Source: an uncultured Christensenellaceae bacterium (lineage in GTDB: Bacteria > Bacillota > Clostridia > Christensenellales > DTU072). From it: a DNA stretch of 58,667 nucleotides. This document shows positions 9,967-57,200 of this stretch, piece after piece (position 1 is the first letter of the stretch; every line of letters begins with the position of its first letter). The stretch lies in contig CAYZOJ010000002.1 of assembly GCA_964480195.1 (NCBI GenBank), positions 1 to 58,667 on the forward strand, given 5' to 3'. A program made the translations under genes and the position numbers. Below the pieces are notes generated by a model, which was not told the origin of the DNA, made no database searches, and saw only the letters and a list, made by a program, of their open reading frames with translations.

Positions 9967-10043
<77 letters not shown>

Positions 10044-35760: not shown

Positions 35761-35762
35761 AA

Positions 35763-36602
35763 ATGGAATACAAAATAGGCAGTTGTTTTTTAGGAAGAAC
35801 GCTCGAACTCACCGATGGTAAAATCGAAATCGGCGTAACGCTTGACGTCGGACCGAGAATTATCAAACTCAACAAAATCGGTTCGGAGTCGATTATGTAC
35901 GAAGACGTGGCGGAATCCGTTACGCGCGACGTTTCCGCAGAGTACGGAGAGGGCAAAATGTGGCGCATTTTCGGCGGGCACCGTATATGGTTGTCGCCCG
36001 AAGATAACACCACTTATTACCCCGATTGCACGCCCGTAGACTATGAAATTACGTCTGACGGCGCAATCTTTACCCCGAAAGCGTGGGAGGAAAGAGGCGT
36101 AGCGCCGAGTCTTGAAATAGTAATGCGCGGTAACGGCGAACTCGACGTCGTAATGCGTATGAAAAACATCGGCGGGGAAACGCGCAGACTTTGCGTGTGG
36201 GCGCTCACCGTCCTTAAAGTGGGAAGCGTGGTTACCGTGCCTCTCTCGACAGAGGATACGGGCTTCCTTGCCAACAGAAACATCGTACTTTGGCACTATA
36301 ACGACGTTCACGACGAGAGATTTACTCTCGACAACGACAAGTTCGTTTTGCGCGGTACGCCCGACGCGGAGGGTCCGTTCAAGGTCGGTACTTGGCTCAA
36401 ACACGTTAAGGCGGAGTACCGCTACAAGGATACTCTCTTTATAAAAGAAACGGAAGGACTCGCGGGGGACGCTCCCGACTTTTGTTGCAATATGGAAACT
36501 TACACCAACCGCTATATACACGAAGTCGAAACGCTTTCGCCCATACGCGACGTTGCGCCCGGTGAAACTCTCGTTCACGTCGAGAAGTGGACCGTAAGAT
36601 AG
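35763..36602 (+). CDS. Hypothetical beta-sandwich protein, aldose-epimerase/DUF4380-like (assigned by eye)
   Basis: 279 aa. It starts 2 nt after the upstream stop. The motif FGGHRIWLSPED is reminiscent of the DUF4380/mutarotase-like family. Confidence 0.7.
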   Translation: MEYKIGSCFLGRTLELTDGKIEIGVTLDVGPRIIKLNKIGSESIMYEDVAESVTRDVSAEYGEGKMWRIFGGHRIWLSPEDNTTYYPDCTPVDYEITSDGAIFTPKAWEERGVAPSLEIVMRGNGELDVVMRMKNIGGETRRLCVWALTVLKVGSVVTVPLSTEDTGFLANRNIVLWHYNDVHDERFTLDNDKFVLRGTPDAEGPFKVGTWLKHVKAEYRYKDTLFIKETEGLAGDAPDFCCNMETYTNRYIHEVETLSPIRDVAPGETLVHVEKWTVR

Positions 36603-36624
36603 TTTAATTTTGTTCGGAGGCTAT

Positions 36625-37953
36625 ATGCTGGACCGCGGATACGTACCGATGTATCTATATCAAAAACGTTTTTTAGAAGGTTTGTCGCATACCGCGCATA
36701 AACCTTTTGTTTTATCTCTCGAACGCGGAGAGGGCGAATACGAGAGATACGAAACCGCTCTTTACGCGGTCGGACACGAAGCCGAAAACCTCGAATATGC
36801 CGTTAAAATCGTCAAGACGATGCTCTGGGCATACGGCGGTTATAAGTTCTGTTTAGAGGGCGGAGAAGGCGTTTTAGAAGGGCTTAGAGAGATCTTTTCC
36901 GAGCACGGGGCACGGGCGTTCGATTATAACTTTATGCGCGACGTTTATCTTAAACCGCTTACGTTCGAAGTCGTCGGAGAGGGCGAAGCTCCGCTGACGG
37001 CGTGCAAGGCAAAACCGTCCGCACAAAACGCGACGGGCAGGAAAATCGGGTTCGACGCGGGTGGCTCGGATAGGAAGGTTACCGCGTGCATAAACGGCAG
37101 TTCGGTATACGAAAACGAGACAGTTTGGTTCCCCAAACTCAATAAAGACCCGTCTTATCACGAAGACGGTATTTGCGACAGCATAGACAAAGGGCTGGTT
37201 GCGTTGGGCGGAAAAGTAGACGCGATAGGAGTGTCTACCGCGGGCATTGTCGTAGACGGCGAAGTCAGGGTAGCATCCCTTTTCCGTCTTGTGCCGGACG
37301 AACTTCGCGAGAAGCGGATTCGCCCGATTTATCTTAATCTTTCAAAGAAATACGGGTGTCCCGTGGCTGTTGCCAACGACGGCGACGTAACGGCTCTTGC
37401 AGGTGCTCAGTCGCGCGGTCGCGGTAAGCTCATAGGCATGGCAATGGGCACGAGTCTTGCCGGCGGATACGTGGACGGAGATATGCGCATACGCGGTTGT
37501 CTTAACGAATTCGCGTTCGTGCCGGTGGACGCAAATCCCGAATCCGCGACGGACGAATGGAGCGGAGATAACGGCGTCGGAGTAATGTACCACTCTCAAG
37601 ACGGCGTTATAAAGCTTGCGACGGAAGCGGGTATAGATATGAGCGGAGCGGATTCGCCCGCCGAAAAATTAAAGGTAGTGCAGTCGCTTGCCGAAAAAGA
37701 AGACGAACGCGCGGTAGCGGTGTTCGAGCGTATGGGCGACTACTTCGGATACACCGTGCTTTGGCTCAAACAATTTTACGAAGCCGACGCGGTTATGATG
37801 CTCGGAAGAGTAGCTTCCGGCAGGGGTGGCGACATACTGTTTGCGAGAGCGACGGAAGTCATAAAATCAGAAAACGAAGACGTCGAAATCGTGCTTCCGG
37901 ACGAGATGTCCAGAAGGCTCGGTCAAAGCTATACGGCGTCCGGGTTAATATAA
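36625..37953 (+). CDS. ROK/ASKHA-type sugar kinase-like protein with an extra N-terminal domain of about 130 aa
   Basis: Phosphate-1-like IGFDAGGSDRKV and the ROK-like VANDGDVTALAG. GGAGG SD before ATG 36625 (the track start 36610 is a TTG). Confidence 0.75.
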   Translation: MLDRGYVPMYLYQKRFLEGLSHTAHKPFVLSLERGEGEYERYETALYAVGHEAENLEYAVKIVKTMLWAYGGYKFCLEGGEGVLEGLREIFSEHGARAFDYNFMRDVYLKPLTFEVVGEGEAPLTACKAKPSAQNATGRKIGFDAGGSDRKVTACINGSSVYENETVWFPKLNKDPSYHEDGICDSIDKGLVALGGKVDAIGVSTAGIVVDGEVRVASLFRLVPDELREKRIRPIYLNLSKKYGCPVAVANDGDVTALAGAQSRGRGKLIGMAMGTSLAGGYVDGDMRIRGCLNEFAFVPVDANPESATDEWSGDNGVGVMYHSQDGVIKLATEAGIDMSGADSPAEKLKVVQSLAEKEDERAVAVFERMGDYFGYTVLWLKQFYEADAVMMLGRVASGRGGDILFARATEVIKSENEDVEIVLPDEMSRRLGQSYTASGLI

Positions 37954-37963
37954 AGGAGAGCAT

Positions 37964-38770
37964 ATGAAACTCAATTCAAAAGCGGAAATCGTACACGGAA
38001 AAAAGCAAGTTTACACCGATTTGGTAGTATCTGCACATCAAGACGATATCGAGATTATGTGTCCCCAAGCGATAATTAAGGGATACCAAAGTGCGGAAAA
38101 CGGAATGGTTGCGGTCGTTTGCACTGACGGTGCGGGAAGTCCTCGCGCAGGCGAATTCGCAACGATGACGGACGAAGAAATGAAGCGTGTTCGCAGGGTA
38201 GAGCAGATACGCGCGGCGGAAGTCGGCGACTACTCCGAACTCGTAATGCTCAACTATACGTCGTCGGAAATGAAAGACAGGGGAAATCCTTCTCCCGCAA
38301 ACGACATCGCGGAAATTATCAAGGAATACCGTCCTCGCGTTATGCACATTCATAACCTTGCGGACAAGCACCCGACGCACGTCGGCACGGCGGTAAATTG
38401 CATTAAGGCAATACGTTCGCTCCCCAAAGAGCTTCGTCCCGAAAAGCTTTACGGTTGCGAAGTTTGGAGAGGTCTTGACTGGCTCGACGACGAAGAAAAA
38501 GTCGTATTCGACCTTACCGGATACGAAAAACTCATGCGCGAAGTGCTTGACGTTTACGTCAGCCAAATCGCGGGCGGAAAGGCGTATTGCACGGCGTCCA
38601 TAGGCAGAAGATTCGCAAACGCTACGTACTCCGCAAGCCACGGTGTGGACGTTTGTGAGCTTGCGTCTTACGCGATGGATCTCACTCCTCTAATTGAGGA
38701 CGACACCATAGATCCGCGCGAATTCATTCTTACAAAGATTCGCAAATTCGAGTCCGACCTCTTGATTTAG
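37964..38770 (+). CDS. PIG-L/LmbE-family N-acetylglucosaminyl deacetylase
   Basis: VVSAHQDDIEIMC (a variant of the PIG-L AHPDDE motif) and a downstream HxxH-type metal ligand (HNLADKHPTH). SD is AAGGAGAG. Confidence 0.8.
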   Translation: MKLNSKAEIVHGKKQVYTDLVVSAHQDDIEIMCPQAIIKGYQSAENGMVAVVCTDGAGSPRAGEFATMTDEEMKRVRRVEQIRAAEVGDYSELVMLNYTSSEMKDRGNPSPANDIAEIIKEYRPRVMHIHNLADKHPTHVGTAVNCIKAIRSLPKELRPEKLYGCEVWRGLDWLDDEEKVVFDLTGYEKLMREVLDVYVSQIAGGKAYCTASIGRRFANATYSASHGVDVCELASYAMDLTPLIEDDTIDPREFILTKIRKFESDLLI

Positions 38771-38820: not shown

Positions 38821-38852
38821 AGTCGGCGTTTTCGGACGCCGACTTTATTTTT
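38821..38852 (+). terminator. Strong terminator closing the 4-gene operon, upstream of the giant gene
   Basis: AGTCGGCGT-TTTCGG-ACGCCGACT followed by TTATTTTTT. Confidence 0.8.
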
Positions 38853-39012: not shown

Positions 39013-39041
39013 TTGACAAAAAAATGCCGTCGTCGTAAAAT
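39013..39041 (+). promoter_or_regulatory. Candidate sigma-A promoter of the giant gene
   Basis: Consensus TTGACA (39013..39018), exactly 17 nt, TAAAAT (39036..39041). Lies about 115 nt upstream of the ATG. Confidence 0.6.
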
Positions 39042-39141
39042 AATTGCAGAGCGGAGCCGAGAAGTCGGTTCCGTTTTGAAATTTATTATTACGCGCGTAA
39101 TACGCCGACGCGTAAAACGCCCGTAAACTCCACCACCTCAC

Positions 39142-39147
39142 AAGGAG
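39142..39147 (+). promoter_or_regulatory. Shine-Dalgarno sequence of the giant gene
   Basis: AAGGAG, 7 nt before ATG 39155. Confidence 0.7.
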
Positions 39148-39154
39148 AAACACA

Positions 39155-39229
39155 ATGAAAAAAGGTTTGATTTACAAGCTGGTGCTAGTGATTTTGATAG
39201 CCTCGCTTGCTCTTGTTCTCTTCGCTTGC
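39155..39229 (+). other. Lipoprotein signal peptide with lipobox L-F-A-C (Cys25) of the giant protein
   Basis: MKKGLIYK (basic n-region), LVLVILIASLALVL (h-region), FAC (lipobox), followed by SPREESPTDSD. Confidence 0.8.
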
Positions 39230-42200
39230 TCGCCGAGAGAAGAAAGTCCGACCGATTCCGACGTCATAAGCGGTAACGATTCCGAAGTTGTCGAAGAAAC
39301 GCGCCTCAGGGAGCGTATCAAAGACGATGACGCGAACAAGCTTATACAGACGGGCGTTGACAACAACCTCGAATACTACTCCGCTTCCGATAATCCGGAA
39401 TGGTACATAATCGACATGACGATGGAGTATGAATCCGAGTATTTCTGGCTTGACTCCGAAGAGCTCGAAGACACGAGTTCGGCGTTCCAAATGGAACTCA
39501 AGGCGAATTTCAATCTTAAAGAGAATTCCAAGAGCCAGTTGTACTTGCAGGTTCGTAACGCGAACAGACAACCCGTATTCTGTGTTTACTACGCTTCCGG
39601 CTATACGTATGTAGTCGTCGGAACGCAAAAATACTATACGCCGGAACTCAACTTTACAGAGGTGGGTAAGTTGGTTTACGGAGCGTTGGCAGGTACCGAT
39701 CTCAATTTGGTACAAGCATTGGGCGGTCTTATGTCGGGCGGTTCGACCGGCCTCGAATCTCTCTTAGGTAGCTATGCGAGCTTGCTTACCTTTGTCCCGT
39801 CCCTTATTTACCCTACGGGCAAAACAAACTCTTATTCGACAGTTTACAATTACGACGCCGTATCCGGCAAATATCTCAACCAAGACGTAAGCAGAACGAT
39901 TAAACTCAACGACTTGCTCAATATGCTTTCGGGTAGCGGTATTTCCATTCCCGGCGTATTCTCGATATCTTTCGGAACGATCTGGGACCTTGTCGGACTC
40001 AACCTCGACCCCGTACTCGGACAGTTCCTCGGCTTCACTTTTGAAGATCTCGGCAACAAAGATTGGCCCAAGATGAACGCGTATCTTACCGCGCGCACGG
40101 AACTCGAAACCTTTACCAAGACGGACGACAACGGAATCGAATCCGTGGTTCAGGATTACGTTATGAAGGGTATCGGCATCGAGATCGGAACCACCGGCGA
40201 CGTCGAGCAAACGCGTGAAAAATACGCGGGCTACACGCCTTCCGATATGGCTTCGGGCGAAAAGGTTGAAGAATACAGCATCAATATCGGTCTTACCCCC
40301 ATAATGATGTATGCAAGCGACGAGCCTTTGAGTATCAACTTCGGCGGACTCGGACTTAACGAAAGCGGACGTAAAGACACTTATACCGAAGGCGGTCTCG
40401 GCAACATAGCTCTCGGAGCTACAATGTACGTCGAAAACGACGCCAACGGCAAGATAACCCTCAACTCTATTTTGGGCGAAGCATTCGATTTGAACCTCGG
40501 CGCTCTCGGCGATATGGCAATAGATTTCCCGTACGCCGCTCGTTACGCACTCGGTCTTGACGTAAAAGTCGCTCTCGACTTCTTCGACGCTCAAAAAACT
40601 CAACTCGAATTGACGATATCGTTTAACGATACGCCTCTCATCCGCGCGTTTATAGACGGCACCGACTTGTATCTCAACTTCGACGATATGCAAGCGTATT
40701 CGGGAGCCGTAATCCCCAAACTCAAACTCAGCGGTTTCAGCATAAACGGTATGCTCGGAGGCATACTCGAATCGGCAAGACCGTATCTCGACCCGAACTA
40801 TACTGCGTCTACAATTCAAAATATGTCTTCGTCCGCACGTAACGAAGAGGGCGACGGCACCGAAGAAGGCTCGTCCGTAGACGTCATGGCAATAATCAAG
40901 GTAGTCCTCGACAACCTCGTATTGCCGGGAAGAGGCGACTACCGCGTAGACGCAAACGGCGAAATCGAACGCGACGCGGACGGCAACCCCGTTCCCAACG
41001 ATTGGGTAATATCCCTTAATCTCGACAACAAAGCGTTGACCGAGATATTCGGCATGATTACTCCCGTAAACGGCGATTTGGGCGAAGATCTTTGCATAAA
41101 CCTCTCGTTCGTTCAACAGCTCGAGTTCCTCAGCACGATAGCGCTTAACGTCGATATAACCGATTCCGTAAGACTCGGACTTACGTTCGACAATATCTCC
41201 TACCTCAGCGAACCCGACTGGGATAACTACGAAATGATCGACACCGCGGAAAAACGCGAAGCGTACACCGATATGTCGATATTCAAGACCGGCGAAGACT
41301 ACACCTACGTCAACACCAAGTACAGCGTGTTTATGCAAGGTTCGGTAAATCTCGGTATGAACCAGTCTACCGAAGAGGGTATCGACCTCGGCGGACTCAT
41401 CGGACAGTTCATCGACGGATTGTTGCTTTCCATCAACATCGAAAGAGGCAAGGACCTCAAATTCGAGTACAGATTGGAAGCTAATACCAACCTCCTCGAC
41501 TTATCGACGACAACCCTCAAACTCAGCGTATTCCACACCGATCCTCTTACCAAGAAGGAAACCGTGTACATACGCATATTCTATATGGGCACGGACGATA
41601 CGTTATATATCGACCTCAAAGACCTCAAACTTCTTTCCGACCAAATCAACGGTTTGAGTTCGCTCGGCGACCTGCCTCGTCTTAAATACGAAAATCTCGG
41701 TTTGAAAGACATGCTCCAAGGTCTTGACATAGCCGGCGCGATAAGCGGAATCGTTACGAACGGCGGGCAAAACGCTCCGCGTTCTCTGACGGTTGACACG
41801 TCCGACCCCGATTTCTTGGCCAAAACGCGCGACTCCATAGTCGGATTGCTTTACGCATTCAATACGATTGGCGGTTACGAAGGATTCCTCGGCAATCCCG
41901 CCGAAAGCATCGTCAACGCGTTTAACGCGCTTTACGGCGAAGAGGGCGACGGTTCAGAGGGCGACGGCTCCGAAGGCACCGACGACGGCGGTATCGACAT
42001 TATGGCGATAGTGGCGGCGGCACTCGAAGGCGTTACGATAGACGATATAGCGGGAACACTCTCGATTAACGTCGCGGCGAACGTTTTGAGCGCGGTTATG
42101 ACCATTCTCCTCGCTCCCGTCGACGAGTTCGGTAATCCCGCGACAATAGATATGCCTCTCGTACACGCATATGTCCAACTCAAGTTCATCAATTTCGATT

Positions 42201-45200
42201 TCGATACCGAAGAGCTTCCCGAAGACGGCTATGCGACGATATTCCTTGCCATTCGCGACAGCGGTGACGAAAATCTCGACGCGGTTTACCTCAAAGTCGA
42301 TTTAATCAAGGACCTCGGCGTGCGCGTAGGACATCTCAACCTCTACTCCGACATTTCCGAAACGAACTATACCGGTTCGTTCGAAACGATACAGGAGTTC
42401 CTCGACGGTCTTACCATAGGTCTTCGTATGAAGGGTCATTTCGACTTGACCGTTCAAAACGAGCCTCAATATAAGGTAGACGACTCCGGCGAATACATCC
42501 TCGACGAAAACGGCAATAAGATACCTCTCCTCGACGAAGAGGGCAATATCATATACAAGAAAATCGAAGAGTATACCAACGATTATCTCAACGGAATGCT
42601 TTCGGGTCTTATTTCGGGACTCGGTCTCAAGATAAACACCGCGGACTTTGGCGTTGGCATAGGATTTGAACTCGTTGCCAAGATTTCTCTCGCGGGCGCA
42701 TTGAAGATAGACGGCTCCGAAGCGGCGGATCTCATGGAAGTCTTGCTCGGAAGCTCCGAAATAATGGTTCGTCTTTACGACAGCAGAGAAGAGGACAACC
42801 CCTCGATTGTAGCTATCTACCTTAAAGACGGCAACGTATACGTCGATCTTTCTTACTTCGAAATGCCCAGCATAGGCATAACGGACATTTCCAAGCTCAT
42901 CGACGATATCGGCGATCTTACCGGCTCGAACGCCGCCGACGCGGAAAAGGCTAAGACCGCTCCCGCAAACCTCCTCCACCTCGACAGAGTGGCTCAATAC
43001 GCCAACACCGCAAATCCCGAAGCCGTCGCATTGCAGTTGATGCTCTCGCCCGACGCTTTGACGATTAACCTTACCAAAGACGCGATAGCGAGCCTTATAG
43101 GCTTACTCTTGAATACCGAACTTCCGATTGAAATACAGGATACCAACCTCGAACTCGGATACGGCGACGACGGTATCACGCTCGAACTCGATACCGGTGT
43201 CGAAATATTCAACCTCTCTATGGGCGCAAACGACCTCTTCTTAGCCGTTACGCCCGAAGACCTTGAAAGCCTCGAATTCGAAGTGAACATTCCGTCCGAC
43301 GTAGACTTCTATATGACCGAAGACGGTATGCCGTTAAGCGTATACCTCGAACTCGGCGGTTACCTTGCGATATACAGCGAACCTCTCGAAGATCAAGACG
43401 CCAACATCATCGACTTGGCTCCGGCGCTCAGCGGTATTTTACCCGGTGTGGAACTCAGTGCGCTCATAGAGTTCTTGGGTCTTGTGGACAGCTCGCTGTT
43501 CTTCGATATACGCGCAAGCGTCAATATCAACGAAATAGTTAACATCGTCAATAACGGATTCGATTTTGCCGGAATCGAGCAGACGGCACTCGCAATAACC
43601 TTTAAGACTTACGCGAGCAACGACCCGGGCGATGTGGACGCCAACGGCGAACGCAACAAGAGAAACGTCATCGAACTCTATTATATCGACGGCGACATTT
43701 ACGCATATATGGATACGACGATGATAGAACTTCATCGTATCTACATCCCCGACGCCAACGAAATTCTTGCAGACCTCATCAAGAGCCTTACCGGCGACGA
43801 CGAAATCGTACCCGATGAAGGTCAATCCGAAAGTGACGAGTCCGAAAACGAAACCGCAGTGGCGGTAGAGTACTATCTCGATCTCGTTCTCGGCAAGAAC
43901 GGACTTGCAATCAACATCTCCAAAGCATTCCTTATCGGTGTATTGAACGTCCTCGGACTCGATATATCTTCTTATCTCCAAAGCCTCGACTTCGAAGCGA
44001 GCGTTTCTTTGGATACTCGTCCTCTCGGCGCGGATATCACCCTTAAACTCCGCGATATCGGCACTGACGGCGTAGATGATCCCGATACGGATAACCCCAA
44101 CGACGGCAACTTCGTAAGTATGTCTGTCGGCTTGAACAAGTTAAAGCTCATGCTCGACACCGTTATAACGCTTTCCGAAGAAGAACGCGCCAACTACAGC
44201 CAGGTTATGAATATCGACACGATAGGCGTATCCTTGGGCGGTGCCGCTAAATTCGAAATCGAAGTTCCCGCAGGCGAAGAGGGCGAAGTTTCCGACGAAG
44301 AAACGGGTGCCACCGGCAACGTCCGTTCGCTCACGTTCATAATCAACGAACTTAAAGACATTCTCAAAGAGAATGCGGAAAAAGAAAAGCTCACCTGGAT
44401 ACGCGACGCGTCCATCGGTAAATACGATACCGAAACGGTTAAGTATTCCGAAATGTCCGACGCGCGTCTAAGCGAAATTTACGATTCCGACGTAACCGTT
44501 AAAGACTATACTCAGCTCCTCAACTTCGGTCTTATTCTCGAAGTCATCGGCGATACTTTGGACGGCAAATCCAAGTTCGGCGGTGAAGTATTCTATGAGC
44601 TCGAAGCGATTTTGGATATAACCGACATCTCGAACCTCAAAGCGTCGTTGTTCTTAAGCTCTTCCCAAAAGGCAGAGGATAGGGGCGATATCCTTTGGGT
44701 AAGCATAATGGGCGTTTACGACGAAGTAACGGGCGAATACGACATCAACGTGTTTGCGGATCTTACCAAACTCTTTAACGAAGGTCTTGTAATCAACGAC
44801 GTCATTCGCGTGAACAACTTCTCCGCGTTCTCGGAATATATGGATAGATTTACGAAGGTTACCGCGGGCGCGCAAGCTTCCTATAACGCGAGTATGCCTT
44901 TGAACTCTACCAACAACCTCTTGGAGCTCCCGCACAACGAAGCGGGCGAAGTCGTTCCGAGCATACTTACCGGCGCAAGCATAGTATTGGCGATAACTTC
45001 CGACGCAAGCAAATACGGCGTTCCTTACGAGGCACCCATTGCGTTGGTAGCGCCTTCCGCGGCAATCTACTCTCTCGTAGACTCATTACTCGGCGGTAAC
45101 GACGCGTCTTACGAAGTAGCCGTTGACGAAGAAAAGATCAGCACTTACGTAAACGACGGCATATACTCCGCAGACGAGTATTATTACGCACTCCGCGGAA

Positions 45201-48200
45201 TTTACGCGACGCATATCGAAACGCTTGCGACCGCACGCGTCAACGGAGAAATATCCGAAGATACTTACGTTACTGTAAATCACCTCTGGTCCTCCAATGT
45301 TAAAGACGCTCTCGACGAGCTTTACGCAAAGGGCGACAGCGTAATAGCGCAGTACGACGCAACCGTCGCGACGTTTGTTAACGAATACGCAAAGATATTC
45401 ACCGACGCGGACGTTGCGGGAAGAATTCTCCCCAATGCGACGGAGGAAGAACTCAGCGTACTCGAAACCGCTTACAACGCGTTCGACGCGTTCTATACCG
45501 AAAAACTTAAACCCGCCGTTGCGGAACCCAAAGACCCCGACGACGAGCAAAAGACCAACCTTATTAAAGGTTTGCGCGCGATTCGTATAGAGGAAATCGA
45601 AAGTCAAAAAGACTCGATGTCGGTTGCCAATTACGAATATCTCCTCCACGGTATGCTTACCACCCTCGAGGGCGAGCAAGTCGATCCCGCGGATTACGGT
45701 AACATAGACGTTTCCACGTTCTTCGGCGTACACTCTCCGTCCTTACTCCTTGAAATCGGCGCGGCGTCGATTCCCAATGCGGACGGCGGTACTCGTTCGG
45801 CATTCCTCCTCGTCAATATGAGTCTTGCCGAACTCCTTACCGTTCAATTCGAAATAGGCAGTATCAACGTTACGATATCCCCCGACGATTCGTACTATAC
45901 CGGTACCGTTGACGAATACGGCACGTTGCAAGGCGGATTGCTCAACAACAAGAACTATTACTGGCTCAATCCCGACAAGATGGCGGATCAGCACATAGTC
46001 ATTTCGTTGAACGGCGAACTCGACTTCGATGCGGAAGACACCTCCGACGGCTCCGATACGGAAGCCAAGACGGCAATCGACCTTACCGAAATCATACAAA
46101 CGCTCTTGACGGAAGCAGACTTCGGCGCGATGATTCGCAACGCGGGTCTTAATCCCACAAAGCTGACATATGAATTGAGCGTCAACGTCAACTTGCACGA
46201 TATTCTCAAAACGATAGCGACGGGCGACATTTACTGGTTGCTCGTAAGAAGCGAACTGTTGCTCTCTCTCGGATTCAGCGGTGAACGCGAATATTACGAC
46301 GAAGAAACGGGCGCATATCTCGGCACTCACGACAGCACCGAATATATATCCTTATATTACGTAGACGGCGACGCCTATATCGACGGCTCCGTAATCGGCG
46401 TACAGCGCGTTAGAGTAAACACCGCGCTTGCAAACCTCTTCGACTTTATCGGAATGGGCGACATCCGCGATTACTACAAGCCCACCCCCGAAGAATACGA
46501 GAAGACAGACGCGTCGTTCGACCCGCAAAATTACCCGCTCAACGCGCCTTTGACGGGTACGGAATTGTTACCGTACGTACGTCTTGCAATGGGCAATCAG
46601 ACGGGTATCGTTCTCGATATAATGAGCGAAGTTATATTCTGCGTGCTCTCCGGTCTTGACCTCGGCGAAAGCTTCCCCGTCGAAGACCTCGGCGAAACGG
46701 TAAGAAATACCCTTAACGGAGATCTTAACTTCCAACTCGGAATAATGTCTAAACTCGGCTTGCTTGCGGATAAGTGGCCGTCAGAGAACAGAGATATCCT
46801 CGCGCTTGCGTTGAACGTAGGTAACTACACGTTGGGCATGAGGCTCTCCGAGCTCAGCCTCGACCTTATGGACGAAACGGAAACGGCTACCGTATCCCTT
46901 AAACCCAAAGAAATGAACCTCGACAGTTACGAGCTCAGCGAAAACCTCGATAACGTTTACGCTGAACTCTCTCTCGACTTCAATCTCGACGGCACCAACG
47001 GCACCAAGTTCAACTTGGACGAAACCGTAGACGGCATACTCTCCCGCTTCGGAATCAACGACGACGGCTCCGTTAATAGCACGGTAGAAACCATAAGAGG
47101 ACTCGGACTGGAACCCATAATCCAGCTTTTGAGTACCCTAAGTAACCATTACACGCTCGAAATCAAAGGTAACATCAACCTTTCGGAAATCATCGACGAA
47201 AACACCTTCTACGATACGAACTTCTCGGTATATCTCCGTGACAGAGATACCCTCATCGACTATAGCGACGGTAACGGCGAAGTCTACAAGGAAGTATTCT
47301 CCGCTCACTATATCGACCGTGCGCTCTATATCAACGCCGAGTGCTTCAACATTCAGGCTGTACGTATAGACACGTTCTGGGATTTCGTAATGCACGACCT
47401 TAAAGACATCTACTTCCCCGAAACCGACGAAGAACCCGAAGAGGGCGACGGCGACGAAACGGAGGAAGTACAAAACGCCACGGGATTTGCCGGATACGAA
47501 AGCAAATCGGGATTCGATCCGCTTTCGCTCTTGCGTCAAGTCGCGAGCGGTGAAGCGAATAAGGTTGCCGCATACATCAATATTACGGCAAGCCCCGAAG
47601 GCTTTGCGCTAAGCATCGGAACCACGGTGTTGTTCGCGGTACTCCGCGCAATCGGCGGTGAGGCAATGGACTTCTCGAGCTATGTCGAGCCGATAGGCGA
47701 ACTTACCGTCGAAGCAGTACTCTTCGGACCCGAAGAGCTCTTAGGCTTGGGACTTACGTTCGAAGGATACGCGTTCAGCGGTGACGAAAGAATCAATACC
47801 GGTACCGAGGAAGAACCCGTTTATCAAAAAGACGGCAGTAACATTTCGATAAGCTTCGGTATCAGAAACGACTTCAAGGTTGCGTTCAACAACACTTGGC
47901 TTGCGGATAAATACTATATTAACCGCGACAAGTTCTACACGGGCGAATTTACGTCCGACGACGTAACCGTAAGCCACGTAACCGTAGATAACACGATTAG
48001 CGCGCCCGCATACGCGTATATCGACGACGGCAACGGCGGTTACGAAGCGATAGACTACACCGCAGTCGACCTTACCAACCCCGTAATAGGTCTTGAAACG
48101 GTAATTTACATCGACCTCGGCGCGGGCAAGATAACGGGCGACGGCGTAACCGGAACCGTCAGCAGAGAATATGACGAGAACGGCGAATTGTCGGGTATCC

Positions 48201-51200
48201 ATTACAGTGGTTACGATCTCAACAAAGAGCCTTTAACGTCGCTTCTCGCGGGCATACTCGACGCAACTCTCGCTATACTTTTGGAAATTGATTCGAATCA
48301 GTCCGTAACGTACGAACTCGAACTTTTGGTCAACTTCCCGCTCCGCAACTTCAGAGGTATCGAAGTACAGCTCACGTTGAGCGGTCTTTACAACGAGAAG
48401 TATTATCGTCAGTTGTTCAGAGCAAACCTCCACAACTCCAACCTCTACGTCGACCTCACCGCGCTCAACGGACCCAAGTTCTCCGTAGAAGCGGTTCTCG
48501 AAACGATTCTCGGCGAAAAGGAATTTGAAGACGACGTCATTTCGGGTCTTATCGACAGCATATTCGGCGGTGGATCGAGTGACGAGGAAACTCCGCAAAA
48601 CGCGTCAGGCGCACAAAACGCGTCTTCCGCAAAGACTGATACTCCCATCAATATAGATTTGGGCGTCGAAAGACTCATAAGAGGCGTGATGACCCACGGT
48701 CTTGCACTCTATGTAACGGAAGCGGCGGTAAACTCCATACTCCGTATGTTCTCGATGTCCGACCTCGAAATATTCGAAACGCTTTTGGTGGAAATCGGTC
48801 TTGCCGCCAAGAAGAACAGCTTCATATTCGCATTGGATCTCGAAGCGACGGCGGAATACTATGACGAAAACAACACCAGTCAATCGAGTAAAGTTATCGA
48901 CTTGGGACTCGGTATCGACGGATTGCGCCTGAATTTCGAAGGCTTCCCGAACACCGAACTCCTGTTACCGCAGACGGCTAACTATATGCGCGCGGCGGAA
49001 GTCAATACGCTTACTTTGAGCACTGCAATCGAAATCGAAGTAGGGGTAAACGGCGGAACGCTCAATCTTAACGGACTGTATCAAGAAGTCTTGCGCGAAG
49101 ACGGCGCGATAGCCGGTCTTCTCGGCGACGACGACTCGTTCGATTCGCTCTTCGGCAACAACGGCTTGATGACGGCTCTTCCGCAACTCGTAATGCTCGG
49201 CGACGTCGGCGACACGTTGGTATTCCAAATCGACGGTATGGTCTACATCAAGGGCGGACTCGAAGGCATAATCGACAATTTGCAGTTGCGCCTCGAAATC
49301 TACTCCAAGAAGTGCAGAGAAAAGTTCGACATCGTATTTACCTATTATAAGAACCAGCTTTACGGCGACTTCTCTTCGATAGGAATGGGTAAAGTCTTCA
49401 TTGACGACGTCAACTTCTTGCTCGATTGGTTCGGCGGTCTCGGCGGTAGCGACGAAGAAACCGAAGCTCAATCCGCTTCTTTGACCGAAACCGAACGCGT
49501 GGCAAACGCATTCGCAAAACAGTTCCCGACTTGGGCACAGGCACTCGGACTCAATAACGCAAGCTCGGACGAAAATCTCGTAGGTATCGTCAAGATACTC
49601 CTCGGCAACGACGACGGCTTGCTCATCACCGTAACGTTTGAAATGATAGACGTCATACTCAAGATGGTCGGATTGGACATCGGACTCGAAGACTATCTTG
49701 CGGGCGTTCTCAACCCGAGCGCGACGGTAGGCGTAATACCCGGTCCCGCATACGAAATCGGTATACATCTCGACACCGCGTCGAGCACCATACCCAACTG
49801 GAGCTGGGACGAGGAAGCTCAAGAGTATCGTCAAGACAGCGAGCCCAAGAAAGACGAAAACGGTGAATATGTCGAAAACAACGGCGGTTTGGATCTCGCT
49901 CTCCGTTTGATGGGCGGAGATACCTCGATAGGCATCGAAAACGAATCTCTCGTCTACACGCCTTACGGCATACAATCCACTCTTACCCCGCTCATTTCCG
50001 AAGAAGAGAGAAGCGCGTACAAGATGTTCAACGAAGTAGCGTTGACGTTAGGAACCAACTTCGCTCTCCAATTCGACCTCTCCGACGGTAAGATTCAGCT
50101 CAACGCATTACTCGATACCATATTCACGATTCTCGGTATGGAGATGCCCGAGGACTACGAAACCAACATCATATTCAACGGCGGTAACGAAACGTTGTAT
50201 TGCGAAATCAACCTTAGAGTAGGTTTGGATCTTGCAAAACTTCTTTCCGCAAACTCCGAAGACATCACTCACGCCATAACCTTAGAGCTCATCGTTCAGT
50301 ACACGATTATAGATAACGTTACCGACGAAGTCTATATGAACCAAAAACTCATCGAGCTCTATATGTTCGACGACATAATTTACGCTGGACTTAACATAAT
50401 GGATACCGAACTCGGCGTAAAGGTACCCGATATGGGACTTTCCGCAACCCTCCGCGGACTTATGGAGAAACTCTTCATAGTCGATAAGGTCGAAGACGAC
50501 GTTACTACCGGCGGTGGCGAAGAAGGCGGTAATCCTCAAAACGCGTCCTCCAACCCGATTAAGGATATGTACGAGTCGACTAAGGACACCGTCGGCGATA
50601 CGCCGGTAGGCAACCTTATGACTCCTATGATTTACTTGAACTCCCAAGGCTTTGCGTTGATGCTTACCAAGACCCTCCTTATCGAGTGTATCGACGCGGT
50701 TATAGATATAGCCGGCGGTGCGATAGGTACGCAGGACGGCGAACCCATAATCCTTGACCGTGAACAACTCGAGTTCATTGCGGAACAGATTCTCGACTAC
50801 GTAACACTCGGCTTCTATTTCGACCCGGACGAAGAGGGCAATATGAGCATTAAGCTCAACCTCACCAAGGAAGCGGGCGAAGAGCAAATCGAAGAAACCA
50901 AGGAGTGGTACGATTCCGTCGGTTACAGCATAACGCTTTCGCTGTTCCACGACAGTATCATGACCGTCAGCACCGAAACTTACGACGAGCGTCTAGATTA
51001 TCTCCGTTACGACGAAGAGCACGTAAGATATTACGATAACTGCCTCGACACCCGTAACATCGCGTGGCGCGTAAACCTCGGTATCGACCTTTCGATAGGT
51101 ACGGACATTCAACAATACATATTGAACTGGAGCTCGCTCTTCCAAAACGAAATGGACGAGGACGGCAACGTCACGGGCGCCGCGTTCTATATTCAAGCGC

Positions 51201-54200
51201 TCCAAGACAACATCGGAGAGCTTACCTTGCGTATCAAAGCCGACGTAACTCTTACAGCACTTGACGAGTGGAGCATTAACGCGATGATCCAACTCGTAAG
51301 GCTCAAAGAGGACGGCACATATGAAAACGGCGACGACGTCGACGAAGAAGTATTCGCGCTTTACGTACTCGGCTCTTTGAACAACGCTACGGGCTATGCC
51401 GAAAACGGGCTCCAAGTCTATATGACCATGAGCTCGATGGAGCAATACGGCTTGACGGGCATAATCCTCGACTCCTCGGTATTCGAGAAGTTCTTCAACC
51501 TGAACTTGAACGCCGTACTCGAGTCGTTAGGCGGAACGCTCGCCACGACGATGGACGGCTCCATTATCGCGATGCTCAACAGCCTCATGCAATCGGTAAA
51601 CGGTATTATCGGAAGCATCGGCGGTGACGCGTCGGAAGAAACCGATCCCGAAGGACCCAAGAGTGAAGCAAGCGTTTCGACAGGCGAGGGCACTTCGACC
51701 GAAGGCACCGAAGAAGAGAATCCCTACGCGCCCGACGACGGCGAAGGCGACGAAGACAACGTTGCGTGGTATGCGGGACTCTTTGACAGTATCCAATTCA
51801 CCAAGGGCGCGATTTCGATAGTCATAGCGCAGACGGCTGTACAGACGATACTCGACGAGTTGTTGACCTTCCCGTTCGACGAAAAACTCGGCGAACTCTC
51901 CTTCACGCTCGACAACTACGATAACTCTTTGAAACTCTCGTTCGGTACCGACTATCAAGAGCCTGTCGACATCAGCGACATCGACCTCGATAAGCTCAAG
52001 ATTACCGTCGGCGAAGACGCTGTCGTAAACGACGTCAATAACTACATCGAAGCTCTCGAACGCGACATATTGAAGGTAGCGTCGCCGTTCTTCCTTAGCG
52101 GTGTTACCGTCCAATACGATAACTATAGCGGAATGCTCAACGCAAGTTCGGCATACGTCGGCGACGTCAACAACGCCCAAGTTCTCGGCATTTCCGATAG
52201 CTACGTAAGATACCTCGTTTATGACGCCGAAACGATATTCGGTTCTACCGTAACGAGCCAATCCGAATTGACGCGCAAGCAATACGCGCTCGCGATAATT
52301 GAGGCGATTAACACCCGTCTTAAAGACAGATATACGCTTGTATCTTCCGATTCCGTCAACGGCATTTACGGATTCGAGAATCAAACGTTAAGAGCAAAAG
52401 TCGCGGTTAAACTCTCTGACGAAGACATCAACGTCGAGGGCAATCCTTATAAACAATATAAAGTAATAGTGGCTGTCGCATACGAAAGCTCGAAGCTCGA
52501 TTTGAGCACGGTAGAAGCCGACGTATTCGGCGGTAAACAAGTAAGCCTTACCACCGAAGAAATCGCCACCAACGAAATCAGAGAGCAATACGACGACGAC
52601 TTCCTCGAAGGCATCACCGTACCCGTCGACGACGGCAAGTCCGTTGCGCTCAAGGCGGAAAGCGTTTACGTACAGAAGTTCAAGCTTTATGCGGGACAAG
52701 AGTACGAAGTCGAAAATCCCGGCACGCGTAACGTCTTCTATTACGTATACAACCCGCTCGATTTCTACGATTACGAAGAAACCGGCGACAGATACTCCGA
52801 AATCGCGCTCAAAGAGAAGAAAGCTCTTGCGGAAAAACTCTTATTGGTTATCTCCGACTACTTCCACGAGGGCGAATACACCTGGTCCAAGAGCGCGGAC
52901 GGCGTACACGAACTCTATAAGAGCGACACGCGCTTCAACGTCGCTATCAAGGTTGTAGAAGAGAAGGAAGTCATCGGCGGAACCGAAAGGACTGTCGGTT
53001 ACAAGGTAATAATGGGCACTTCGAGCGACAAGAGTATGTTCAACGTGTATGTCAAGATACACGGACTCGACATCGGTCTCGGCGAAGGCAACATCTTCCA
53101 AGAAATGCCTCTCGGCGGAAAGCTCCGCGACGGCAAGACGGAATACACTATTATTAACGAAGCCGGTGAAGAAGAGATCGTCAAATACGATTATCTCGAC
53201 TACTTCGCAACTCAGTTCATGCCTCTTTCGGACTACAAGTGGGAGTTCGAACTCTACTCCGAACTCACCATCGACGATACCGTAGGCGGAATATTCGATA
53301 TGTCCGACCTTATGGTATTGGTAGGCGGGCTCATAGGCGGGGACATCGGCAATTCGATATCTCAAATCAACTTCGCGTTGCAACCGATAGACGACGTGGC
53401 AATCACGTTCGGTATCGCGGTTCGCGCGTACATTGACTTTGGCGACTTCACTCCCATGCGCTTCCAAGTTGAGCTCACCAACCAAGGTAAGACCGTACTC
53501 CTTCTTACCTACGTAGGCGGTTACGACGTTGACGAAAACGGCATTTACGAAAACAGCAAGCTCTATGTAGACCTCAGCGGTCTCGGATTCCCCTCGGTCA
53601 AACTCGAGCACATCCAGCTTGCCAAGATAGTTAAAGACCTTATGGGCGGTCTCAGCGGAGAAACCGAAGAGAACAAGCCCGAAAACGGCGCAGACAATGG
53701 CGAATCGGGAACCGTAAACGGCAATTCGGGAACCTCTACTCCCGCAAACGCCTCCGCTTCCGACGAACCCGAAAGAATTTACTTAAGCGATAAAGACATC
53801 GACTTCAAGATGTTGCTCTTGACGTTCGGCGAAGAGAATACGAGTATTGCGATAACCGGTGCTCTTCTCTGCTCGCTCATAGGCGCAATCGGTCAGAACG
53901 AAGTCATCTCTTCCGCTCTCGGCGGACTCGACATCGACATCCCGATGTTCCGTAACCTCCAAATCGGTTACTCCAAAGAAGACGGACTCGCGGGTATCAT
54001 CTTACGCCTTACCGACGACACGCCTTACGAAAAGGCAATGCGCATAGGCTTCAACTTCCGCAACGTAAGCGAAAGACCCGACGGATACGGTTCTTACACC
54101 AAGTTCTGGACGGGCGACGAGTCGTCGACCTCGATTGACCCGAGAGAAAATGTCGAAGGCGAAGTCGAAGACGGAATCGCTTACGAGAACATCGACGTTA

Positions 54201-57200
54201 TCACCCAAGTAGGTCTCGGACTCGAAGTCGAAGTTCGCGTACGTACCAAGGACACCGAAAAGTCTTCACAGCTTCTCGCACTCGAAACGTTACTCCAAAA
54301 ACTCCTCGCAAGCTCGGGAATGCTCCCGGACAGCGAAGGCGTCATCAACCTCGATGTACAGAACACAATGCTCGTGTTCACATTGGGACTTAACGTATAT
54401 ACCGACCTTTCCGACCTCACCAAGACCACGCTTGCGTTGAACTTGGGACTCTCCGGCGAAGATCTCCTTGCGATATACTTCCTCGGAAGCACCAACACCG
54501 TATACGCGGATCTCAGCGGACTCGGATTCTTCAAGGCGGCGATAAACGGTATTGACCTTATAGGCATACTCAACACCTTCCTTGGCGGATTCTTGGGCGA
54601 CGAGGGCTTGGAAGTCGGCAAGATGCTTGCAGGTCTTGTATCCGGCATAACGGGCGCTTCTCAAGCGTCGGTCAACGCGACGAGCACCAATTACGTATCG
54701 ACGTCCGAAACCGTCGAAGCTCCGCGTAACGCCGCAATCGACCTCGTAACGTCGACGGATAACCCGCTCCTCAAGATACTCATATCCAACGAAGAACTCA
54801 TCATCAACCCGAACGTGGCAATCCTTTCGAGCCTGCTCGGCGATTCGATGACTCTTCCCAAGATAACGGATATGCGTCTCGGCATCAACCTCTATCAAGG
54901 TTTCAACAACCTCAACATCAAGGTAAAACTCGACCACAAGGGCAACTATCTCAATATGGCTGTTCCGGAAGGCGGGTTGCAAATCGAAATAGGCAAGACC
55001 GCGGAACGCCTTAAACTCTACACCATAGGCGACGAATCCACTTACGGCGGTATCGTAGGTATCTCGATGGGTCTTGACTCGGCGGGATCGCTCTCCGCGG
55101 GTATTGACGCATTGACGCTCGCGCAGGGCATTTTGGACGTCATCGACCTTAAGAACTTTGCGATTTACCTCGAAAAGCGTAACGACTACTTCTTCATTCG
55201 TAACCTTGCTTACAAGGTAACGACGGGTAACTTCTCGTTCGACTATTTCGGAACCTCTTACAGCACCGGTCCTACCGTATTCTCGACTCAGTTCGATAAC
55301 AGATTCATCAACTCCAAGACCGGACTCGATCCGTACGACGACGCGTACGTATCCACCGGACAGCTCTTCAGCTTGTCGATAGGTTCTTGGGACGTAGGTC
55401 AATACGCAAAAGCGTACGAGCCGATATTCTTCGACAACGCGTACAGAAGACTTGCAATCTACGCGACCAAGGACGTTCGCAACGTAACCGACCTCGAGAT
55501 AAGACAGCTTACGCAAGTAGGTAACGTCGAGTCTTACGCAGATCAGACAGACTGGGAGCCGATGGGTCTTAACGCGTACATTAAAGACAACGTCTTGAAG
55601 CTCTCGCTTGACAACATCGTCGTCATCGACTTGAGCGGACTTATTCAGCAGATTTTGAGTTGGATTATTTCCGCTGTCGGTAACGCTATCGGCGGTGGCG
55701 TCGCGGGAACCATAATCAATGCTGTTTGGGGCGTTGCGGGCGACGCTGTATCCACGTGGATTGCAGACCTCCTCGGCGACTTCAGCATAACGATAGGCGG
55801 TGTCGAATACGGACACTACGGCAACCCGCTCAAAGTAGGTAAGCTCGTCACCGACATACTCTCGGGCGGAGATCCGACATACGGCTTCGGCGTTGTAAAT
55901 ATGTATCTCCCGGAATTCCTGCCTTCGCTCATTTCGAGCCTCAGGGCAAGTTCGTTCGAAGATACCAACAGCTACGGCTCTATGTACGGTAACGTCAACC
56001 ACTACAACAAGGCGACCGGCGAGTACGAACCCGTCGCGGGCGCTAAGGTTGTTCTCGGAAACGACCAATACGTAACGTACACCGACTCGGACGGCGATTA
56101 CAGCTTCATCAACGTTGCAATCGGCACGTACAACGTAAAGATTACTTGCGACGGATACAACACCTTACCGAGAGTCGGTCAGGCAAGCCCGCAAGCGACC
56201 GTTTACGCGTACTACGACAAGCCCGCAATGGAAGCGAACTACACCCTCGAAGAGTACGAAACCGGCACTTGGACAAACGTAACCCTCAAGGGTCAAGTCA
56301 AGTACGAGTCCTCTAAGGGCGTATACACGATTCTCAAGGGCGTGGATGTCGAAATCGAGAACCACGGTGTTTGGATTACAGTCGGAACCACCGATTCCGA
56401 AGGTAACTATTCGGGAACGCTTACGACCAACCTCGTAGGTTCCTACCACAATATGAGAGTTGCAAGCGGTATCGCTCACATCGGAACGATAACTTCGTCG
56501 GTGACCCTCAAATACACCGCGGACGGTTTGTCGATGGTAAAAGACTACACCGTCAACATTACCTATAACATTCCGTCGCCCGACGCTACGGTAACCGCAA
56601 CGCTCAAGACGTTGGATCTTACCGAAACGCTTCTCAACGGACAAGCGTCGACCGTATACAATAACTACGCGCGTCGCGATACCGAAGATACGTCTTTCGA
56701 CTCCACAGCCGTTTACAGTTATCAGAACGCCGGCACCATCGTCGGTAGCAAGGTAGACAAAGACCTCGTTCAAAACAAACTCGGCGGAACGGCAGTCGCC
56801 GCATACACCGAAAACGATACCGTTTACAACGTATACGAGTTCGAAACGGTAGCCGCGATGAAGAGCGGTATCTCCGCATTCGTAACCGCGATTAAGGAAT
56901 TGTCCTACACCCAAAACGAGACAAAATACGCGCTCTACGACGTAACCGAAGAAATCGGCTCGCTCTACTACCGCGCGACTTCTTATCAAGAACGCAACAT
57001 TACCGAAATTCGCGGATTCGCGTCGCAATACAAAGACGGCAAGTTCTGCTATCGCGTAATCGTTGCTCGCAGACAAGCGACTCTCGTCGCGGTCGACTTC
57101 TCCGCACTCGAAGTATGGCTCGAAAGGGACGGCAGAACGATACGTAATTCCGACTCGTTCTCGGGAACCAACCTCAACGTCATCAGCATCTACAAGGACG

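Follow-up and report, generated by a model that had tools for sequence, protein, structure and literature searches.

What kind of protein is encoded by a single bacterial reading frame that runs for thousands of codons and returns to the same short motif again and again? This question is raised by contig CAYZOJ010000002.1 (assembly GCA_964480195.1) of an uncultured Christensenellaceae bacterium, of which we analysed 58,667 nucleotides (nt) of the forward strand (the window). A stop-free frame on the + strand (39116-58666) extends past the 3′ end of the window, and the 6,504 amino acids (aa) visible are therefore the minimum length of the protein. The initial annotation, made from the letters alone, had noted 13 sites in this frame at which an aromatic strand is joined by a turn to a second strand, and had proposed that these motifs close about 13 highly diverged modules of 300-400 aa. 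All 13 coordinates lie in the frame and translate as claimed, each to a strand-turn-strand motif and then a hydrophobic helix ending in GG. As described below, structure prediction indicates that the motifs are the closing β-hairpin and helix of an α/β module of ~300 aa, and profile searches indicate that this module represents an uncatalogued domain family, which we define operationally by a 318-position hidden Markov model (HMM).

The reality of the repeat was assessed by self-comparison, as the initial annotation had advised. When 250-aa chunks of the protein were compared pairwise with phmmer, off-diagonal scores reached 30.9, 25.5, 20.5, 18.8 and 16.2 bits, far above the values of three local shuffles (≤ 8.8 bits). 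We also built leave-one-out HMMs, each from 12 copies, with 100 shuffles per copy as control. Of the held-out copies, 11/13 scored 12.7-38.5 bits (shuffle maximum, 9.2). The copy at 47294 was marginal (8.4 bits versus 6.8 in shuffles) and the copy at 50348 failed (1.5 bits). The family-wide HMM, iterated on the window protein and 98 relatives, recovered both weak copies strongly (88.6 and 83.2 bits, respectively). Applied to the window protein, it gave 16 matches that correspond to 15 modules (E values of 1.8e-6 to 1.3e-35) and span the first 5,535 residues. Thus all 13 reported modules are real, but the total is 15, since half a module at the N-terminus and a degenerate module in 15th place come in addition. 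The module size also had to be corrected to ~300 aa (family median, 298 aa); the motif spacings of 551 and 715 aa are due to domains inserted in modules 6 and 12.

The modules are as diverged as proposed, paralogues being 14-25% identical, and they are seen at the protein level alone. The longest families of direct DNA repeats measured 18-37 nt (62-95% identity), without a tandem array of module size. BLAST of the whole protein against itself returned the identity high-scoring segment pair alone, and an HMM iterated from one seed module stopped at two copies.

What does a module look like? Its N-terminal part consists of an acidic linker rich in Ala, Gly, Ser, Glu and Asp, a short hairpin or helix, a hydrophobic helix (gLslaltkalLaaLLglLgg) and three strands. 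In the C-terminal part, a variable loop is followed by a long strand and an amphipathic helix, and these lead into a five-strand antiparallel meander (consensus LGiYYvgGtLYlDLSgLGlpKiKI) and a helix ending in LLggL; the family consensus at this end reads sldLtLdLkAnLDLaDllnseLaLELyn...vlLGiYYvgGtLYlDLSgLGlpKiKIegidLsedLgdLLggLlgg. We obtained an AlphaFold model of module 13 (M13) from 50 aligned module sequences, both orthologous and paralogous. The mean predicted local distance difference test score (pLDDT) was 71.8 and the predicted template modelling score was 0.58, with a pLDDT of 87-95 in the C-terminal hairpin block. In this model the motif forms strands 242-250 and 255-259 (pLDDT ∼ 90), which are the last hairpin of the five-strand meander and are followed by strand 267-271 and helix 275-283. 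According to the model, modules contain 11-12 strands with loops and helices between them. A prediction for module 4 with AlphaFold2 and 15 paralogues alone was poor (pLDDT 53), and a Foldseek search from it was discarded as meaningless. Mean-field direct coupling analysis of 480 module instances yielded antiparallel ladders between HMM positions 231-240 and 246-255, 249-252 and 266-269, and 276-279 and 285-286, in register with the M13 model. One coupled pair (265:278) joins the two strands of the motif hairpin. The two-strand hairpin read from the sequence is thus recovered by both methods, as part of a larger sheet.

Known families did not account for the module. The body of the protein (aa 1-5,535) was unmatched in Pfam and NCBIfam whether scanned whole (E ≤ 1), as 15 modules (E ≤ 10) or as 50 family modules (E ≤ 1). 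In particular, the Pfam profiles of adhesin repeats (Big_1-Big_15, cadherin, RTX/HemolysinCabind, FIVAR, Rib, Cna-B and MucBP) found nothing in the body, and a stalk of RTX, cadherin or Ig type was rejected. Sequence searches of the PDB gave one spurious match with one profile (A1; OSCP, E 0.018) and none with another (A3). Foldseek comparison of the M13 model with the PDB had a best E of 0.17 (template modelling (TM) score 0.12) and TM scores ≤ 0.20; against BFVD the best E was 0.02, and over both databases TM scores were ≤ 0.21 and no match had E < 0.01. The weak matches are sheet-plus-helix platforms (MHC-like, EPCR, p32 and IMPase), which we took to describe a sheet with helices behind it and not as a sign of homology. 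These results agree with the earlier impression that the module is not a standard giant-adhesin repeat.

The initial annotation had also pointed to the lipid-transfer folds. A bridge-like protein related to AsmA, TamB, YhdP or VPS13 would join its modules into one hydrophobic groove, along which lipids would cross the envelope. The window protein resembles these proteins in being very long, putatively membrane-tethered and β-rich, with amphipathic strands in repeated units, and the strands of each module, broken by loops and helices, are loosely like repeating β-groove units. Neither Pfam nor Foldseek supported such a fold, however. At the thresholds given above, AsmA, AsmA_2, TamB/DUF490, DUF748, DUF3971 and Chorein_N had zero Pfam matches in the whole protein, the 15 modules and the 50 family modules, and TamB, VPS13, ATG2 and solenoid chains were absent from the listed Foldseek matches of the single-module model. 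Moreover, the modules appear discrete, contain helices and are parted by acidic low-complexity linkers, and the protein has a lipobox instead of an N-terminal transmembrane helix. Clostridia are generally monoderm, and a second membrane to bridge would therefore be absent from the host. We consider a role in lipid transfer very unlikely.

How far does the family extend? An exhaustive profile search of 1.84 billion representative proteins gave 96 matches at E < 1e-3 (58 at E < 1e-10), each of which was either a fragment or a giant of 5,046-7,924 aa in which 8-15 stretches matched; the giants carry 8-16 modules. A word-indexed homologue search returned two orthologous fragments only (49-50% identical to the window protein by BLASTP), and the same kind of search with a 50-sequence module profile returned P0052 alone. 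In public records the homologues, from metagenome-assembled genomes (MAGs) of Clostridia or Bacillota, are named only 'carboxypeptidase-like regulatory domain-containing protein'; this name covers one small C-terminal domain and leaves a modular body of ∼ 5,000 aa unannotated. One of them, MFA5448907.1 (P0004; 7,809 aa, Clostridia bacterium MAG), has a lipobox, 15 modules and a CarboxypepD_reg region and aligns collinearly with the window protein at 27-32% identity. Another, MCL2629995.1 (6,732 aa, Bacillota MAG), belongs to the P0009 cluster, in which 10 modules matched and the N-terminus lacks a lipobox. Literature searches on giant bacterial proteins and on Christensenellales turned up no account of the family.

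Genomic loci were searched with a four-sequence orthologue alignment, a nine-sequence alignment being too diverse. An orthologue of M13 was present in 26 GTDB species genomes at 35-77% identity, and in 26/26 of these loci the 8-21 kb that we fetched was one uninterrupted reading frame. Names in the record titles include Ca. Stercoripulliclostridium, Christensenellaceae, Christensenella sp. UBA3944 and Clostridia MAGs, and the samples came mostly from gut or faeces, those of sheep, goat, roe-deer and chicken among them. The closest relative, L003 (CAVIFU010000003.1), is 77% identical in M13 and 64% identical over 4,972 aligned columns. It contains a Big_4 domain and runs at least 3,333 aa beyond M13; from this and an alignment to the homologue P0003, we estimate that the full window protein has ∼ 9,000 aa, of which ∼ 2,500 aa would lie past the window. 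L003 was deposited as Ruminococcus bicirculans, and all other carriers are MAGs of Christensenellales-like Clostridia; the species label of L003 is probably a binning or labelling error. As far as the collected sequences indicate, only one small set of giant lipoproteins contains the module family, and their carriers are uncultured Christensenellales-like Clostridia, mostly from the gut.

The history of the array could be read from the order of its modules. For nearly every module, module i of the window protein had its best match in module i of P0003, P0004, P0007 and P0010, and this also held for most modules of P0006 and P0011. Most full-length members have 13-16 modules. The collinear one-to-one orthology between species argues that the array is ancient and fixed. 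Orthologous matches scored ∼ 24-207 bits, whereas the best paralogue inside the window protein scored ≤ 28 bits; the duplications are therefore older than the divergence of the subfamily. The ratio of nonsynonymous to synonymous substitution rates (dN/dS) between the window protein and L003 was ∼ 0.17 (dS near saturation). These comparisons indicate that a 15-module array was present in the common ancestor of the subfamily and has been kept under purifying selection. They bear out the proposal of ancient duplication with selection to keep the fold, and that of little recombinational instability, the array having been frozen since the duplications with a nearly constant module number. A recently expanded tandem repeat was rejected, as was a phage origin; viral contigs yielded zero relatives.

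The same data dispose of the most trivial explanation, which is that a short hydrophobic motif recurs by chance in a biased open reading frame or that the frame is noncoding or misassembled. The motif is indeed short, the paralogues are weakly identical and the copy at 50348 fails the leave-one-out analysis. Similarity nevertheless covers 200-300 aa per module, far beyond shuffles; a total of 650 instances, spread over 99 proteins, match the family HMM, and strand pairs coevolve; and in 26 species the orthologous frame runs for up to 21 kb without a stop. To this comes the low dN/dS just given. Chance or low complexity was ruled out on these grounds, and we give an artefact practically no weight.

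Where is the protein located? Translation starts at ATG 39155, which is preceded by a ribosome-binding site (AAGGAGA). The first residues, MKKGLIYKLVLVILIASLALVLFAC, comprise a basic n-region, a hydrophobic h-region and a lipobox with the invariant Cys, and the protein is accordingly predicted to be a lipoprotein lipidated at Cys25. A signal peptide with a lipobox Cys was found in nearly all long homologues (> 5,000 aa) that include an N-terminus and also at two distant loci, L029 and L030. P0003 lacks a recognisable C-terminal anchor, and the N-terminus should therefore be the tethered end. The visible residues are strongly acidic (1,024 D + E versus 414 K + R) and nearly free of Cys. The protein is probably located at the cell surface.

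We favour the reading that it is a lineage-specific giant adhesin or surface fibril with a stalk made of a new repeat domain, and we put the probability of this at roughly 55%. After export, lipidation of Cys25 would tether the protein to the cytoplasmic membrane on its outer side. Linkers of ∼ 33 aa, which are negatively charged and probably flexible, would join the 15 modules into a long stalk of fixed length. On this stalk the C-terminal β-sandwich region (with CarboxypepD_reg and, in orthologues, Big_4) would pass through the cell wall and reach beyond it; a partner bound there might be, for example, host mucus or glycans, a food particle or another microbe. The features that we count for a surface protein are the acidic composition and linkers, CarboxypepD_reg, the Big_4 domain of L003 and the secreted neighbouring lipoproteins with Big_2 and Transglut_core domains. 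Several points weigh against this assignment. Apart from generic β-sandwiches, no ligand-binding or enzymatic domain was identified in the distal region; the C-terminus itself falls outside the window. Public annotation stops at the carboxypeptidase-like regulatory domain and has no bearing on function. The module fold is a medium-confidence prediction of single modules, in which residues 111-150 are disordered, and we infer the packing of helices on the sheet from secondary structure and the weak Foldseek matches to sheet-plus-helix platforms.

The linkers and the neighbouring genes bear on a second explanation. Linkers between modules are acidic and of low complexity, with a median length of 33 aa. 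Across 447 family linkers, QNA is ∼ 10-fold enriched and PSNA, SEAV and EAVT are enriched too. The window protein contains 11 NA[ST] motifs (3.6 ± 1.9 expected), of which 8/11 are in inter-module linkers. In addition, the gene order is conserved in the window and at three other loci (L001, 1537-7438; L029, 1479-9744; L030, 5510-9719): one or two lipoproteins of ∼ 1,000 aa with Big_2 and Transglut_core domains, a 280-aa protein (39-48% identical across loci, no firm Pfam match), in some cases ROK, then PIG-L (absent from the L030 stretch) and the giant gene. This order is kept although the N-terminal region of the giant in L029 and L030 is only 26-28% identical. The protein could thus be a structural component of the envelope or coat, a self-associating layer or matrix whose linkers are cross-linked or cut by the neighbouring transglutaminase-like lipoproteins. 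However, the position beside rlmB and sigH may be no more than synteny shared by members of one order; many Transglut_core proteins are proteases or of unknown function; the giant gene appears to have its own promoter, with a terminator between it and the upstream genes; and motif enrichment in low-complexity linkers can be compositional. We therefore regard a coat component as a secondary possibility, rather unlikely but well ahead of lipid transfer. The shared neighbourhood may point to a functional link, or it may be synteny at the level of the order, and the linker motif could be a site of processing, cross-linking or glycosylation. Variants of it (PQNAS, AQNAS, VQNAT and PANAS) lie within 47453-54700, for example at 48599-48625, 50534-50548 and 53747-53758. 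A more speculative combination, which we consider improbable, is that the module is a new fold and that the giant and the co-conserved transglutaminase-like lipoproteins make up a dedicated surface-assembly system. In it, the QNA and SEAV motifs would be cross-link (Gln donor) or cleavage sites, and gut Christensenellales-like cells would be covered by a fibrillar coat that is processed or stabilised by covalent bonds.

How does the favoured adhesin or fibril compare with known systems? Monoderm bacteria have well-known giant repeat-stalk adhesins, among them Ebh/Embp (FIVAR-GA modules), SasG and the Rib/alpha-like proteins. Like these, the window protein is very large, acidic, apparently secreted and tethered at one end, with a long series of modules next to β-sandwich domains that is presumed to project a binding region from the wall. 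It differs in that its module matches none of their families and is a mixed α/β unit of ∼ 300 aa instead of a repeat of 70-130 aa, in its predicted N-terminal lipid anchor in place of an LPXTG motif or C-terminal transmembrane segment, and in the acidic disordered linkers between modules. What is new here is the large α/β repeat unit without a catalogued relative, since giant repeat-stalk surface proteins as such are already known.

'Periscope' proteins, which Whelan et al. are said to have described in 2021, reportedly have surface stalks in which nearly identical repeats stand in tandem and change in number through recombination. In both cases, a stalk of repeats would connect the anchor at the cell with a functional domain at the far end. 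In the window protein, however, paralogues are 14-25% identical, DNA repeats longer than 37 nt are absent, modules are orthologous one to one between species and their number is nearly fixed (13-16 in most members). The length of the stalk is therefore hard-wired and not variable. A 15-fold array frozen in this way is the opposite of the recombining, variable-length repeat adhesins.

The module family accounts for ∼ 650 instances in the collected sequences and ∼ 85% of the window-visible protein, in a gene with > 19.5 kb of coding sequence. Its HMM and module boundaries can be converted into a Pfam/InterPro entry, and proteins whose present name reflects a single 80-aa C-terminal domain would then be re-annotated. 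With a possible length of ≥ 100 nm, a conserved stalk is a candidate for contact of gut Christensenellales-like Clostridia with the host, food particles or partner microbes, and plausibly a key surface structure of an understudied gut lineage.

The coordinates of the modules and of the other features of the locus are collected in the table.

Table. Modules of the giant protein and other features of the locus (window coordinates; LOO, leave-one-out HMM score; HMM, family HMM score; scores in bits)
Feature	Position	Strand	Remarks
M0, N-terminal half-module (C-terminal meander only)	39443..39760	+	Motif VFCVYYASGYTYVVVG at 39575-39622; family HMM positions 223-307, 30.5, E 1.9e-9
M1, motif 40637	39767..40804	+	LOO 17.0; HMM 76.6
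M2, motif 41564	40790..41785	+	LOO 24.0; HMM 104.2
M3, motif 42806	41912..42964	+	LOO 25.0; HMM 78.5
M4, motif 43667	42932..43831	+	LOO 25.0; HMM 116.4; phmmer 30.9 to M6
M5, motif 44690	43811..44896	+	LOO 12.7; HMM 49.7
M6, motif 46343	44957..46510	+	LOO 38.5; HMM 73.6
M6 helix-rich insert, ~225 aa	45122-45799	+	Inside M6
M7, motif 47294	46451..47458	+	LOO 8.4 (marginal); HMM 88.6
M8, motif 48413	47453..48607	+	LOO 21.0; HMM 89.7
M9, motif 49331	48584..49483	+	LOO 12.9; HMM 87.1
M10, motif 50348	49487..50524	+	LOO 1.5 (not significant, paralogues only); HMM 83.2; orthologous to P0003 module 10, 158
M11, motif 51350	50534..51655	+	LOO 15.5; HMM 50.7
M12, motif 53495	51785..53701	+	Two family HMM matches: positions 1-196 (48.0) and 129-310 (82.5)
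M12 inserted α+β region, ~350 aa	52022-53074	+	Inside M12, which it splits
M13, motif 54464	53693..54622	+	LOO 26.3; HMM 103.6; used for the AlphaFold model
M14, degenerate 15th module	54620..55759	+	Ends in NAYIKDNVLKLSLDNIVVIDLSGL at 55571-55642; HMM 20.6, E 1.8e-6; orthologous to last P0003 module, 110
Start of non-module C-terminal region (frame continues past window)	55760..58666	+	CarboxypepD_reg β-sandwich domain(s), PF13620, E 7e-12, 3 stretches
Best CarboxypepD_reg stretch	56027-56167	+	PF13620
Gly/Ala/Ser-rich, zipper-like hydrophobic segments IISAVGNAIGGGVAGTIINAVWGVAGDAV and SSAIGNAIGNAIGGTIGSLVGSAASSILGSLFGNIGG	55631-55804, 57656-57805	+	Mutual similarity 11.6
Start codon and predicted lipoprotein signal peptide MKKGLIYKLVLVILIASLALVLFAC	39155..39229	+	Lipobox L-F-A-C ending at Cys25
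Sigma-70-type promoter-like site of giant gene (TTGACA, 17 nt, TAAAAT)	39013..39041	+	11/12 matches; consensus match only
Intrinsic-terminator-like hairpin, end of upstream operon (Transglut_core, 279-aa protein, ROK, PIG-L)	38821..38844	+	10-pair stem, 6 G-C pairs, then T-run
Upstream genes: 988-aa Big_2 + Transglut_core lipoprotein, 279-aa protein (weak DUF4380), ROK, PIG-L deacetylase	32794-38770	+	On the giant's strand

In M14 the family HMM matches the N-terminal half, and the C-terminal half is expanded. The inserts of M6 and M12 were unmatched in Pfam; that of M12 resembles two similar α+β sub-segments. In the C-terminal region, the second of the two glycine-rich segments gave a sub-threshold match to Gly-zipper_Omp (E 0.5). 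Such zipper-like segments might insert into the membrane or mediate self-association.

Farther upstream, on the opposite strand, lie rlmB, a sigH-like sigma factor gene, ychF and cysS. Between the promoter-like site and the start of the giant gene there is a leader of ∼ 110 nt with a 14-pair hairpin (39047-39078), then an A/T-rich tract. This hairpin, which was unmatched in an Rfam scan whose sole match was a tRNA (9970-10043), could be an attenuator or an mRNA-stabilising structure.

Finally, turns of the form D-E/A-N/D-G recur in the variable loops of several modules (GEYILDENGNKIPLLDEEGN, VDANGEIERDADGN and DVDENGIYEN; 40934-40985, 42488-42553 and 53516-53558). They are the sole feature visible as weak DNA repeats (family D1), and they may be calcium-binding turns.

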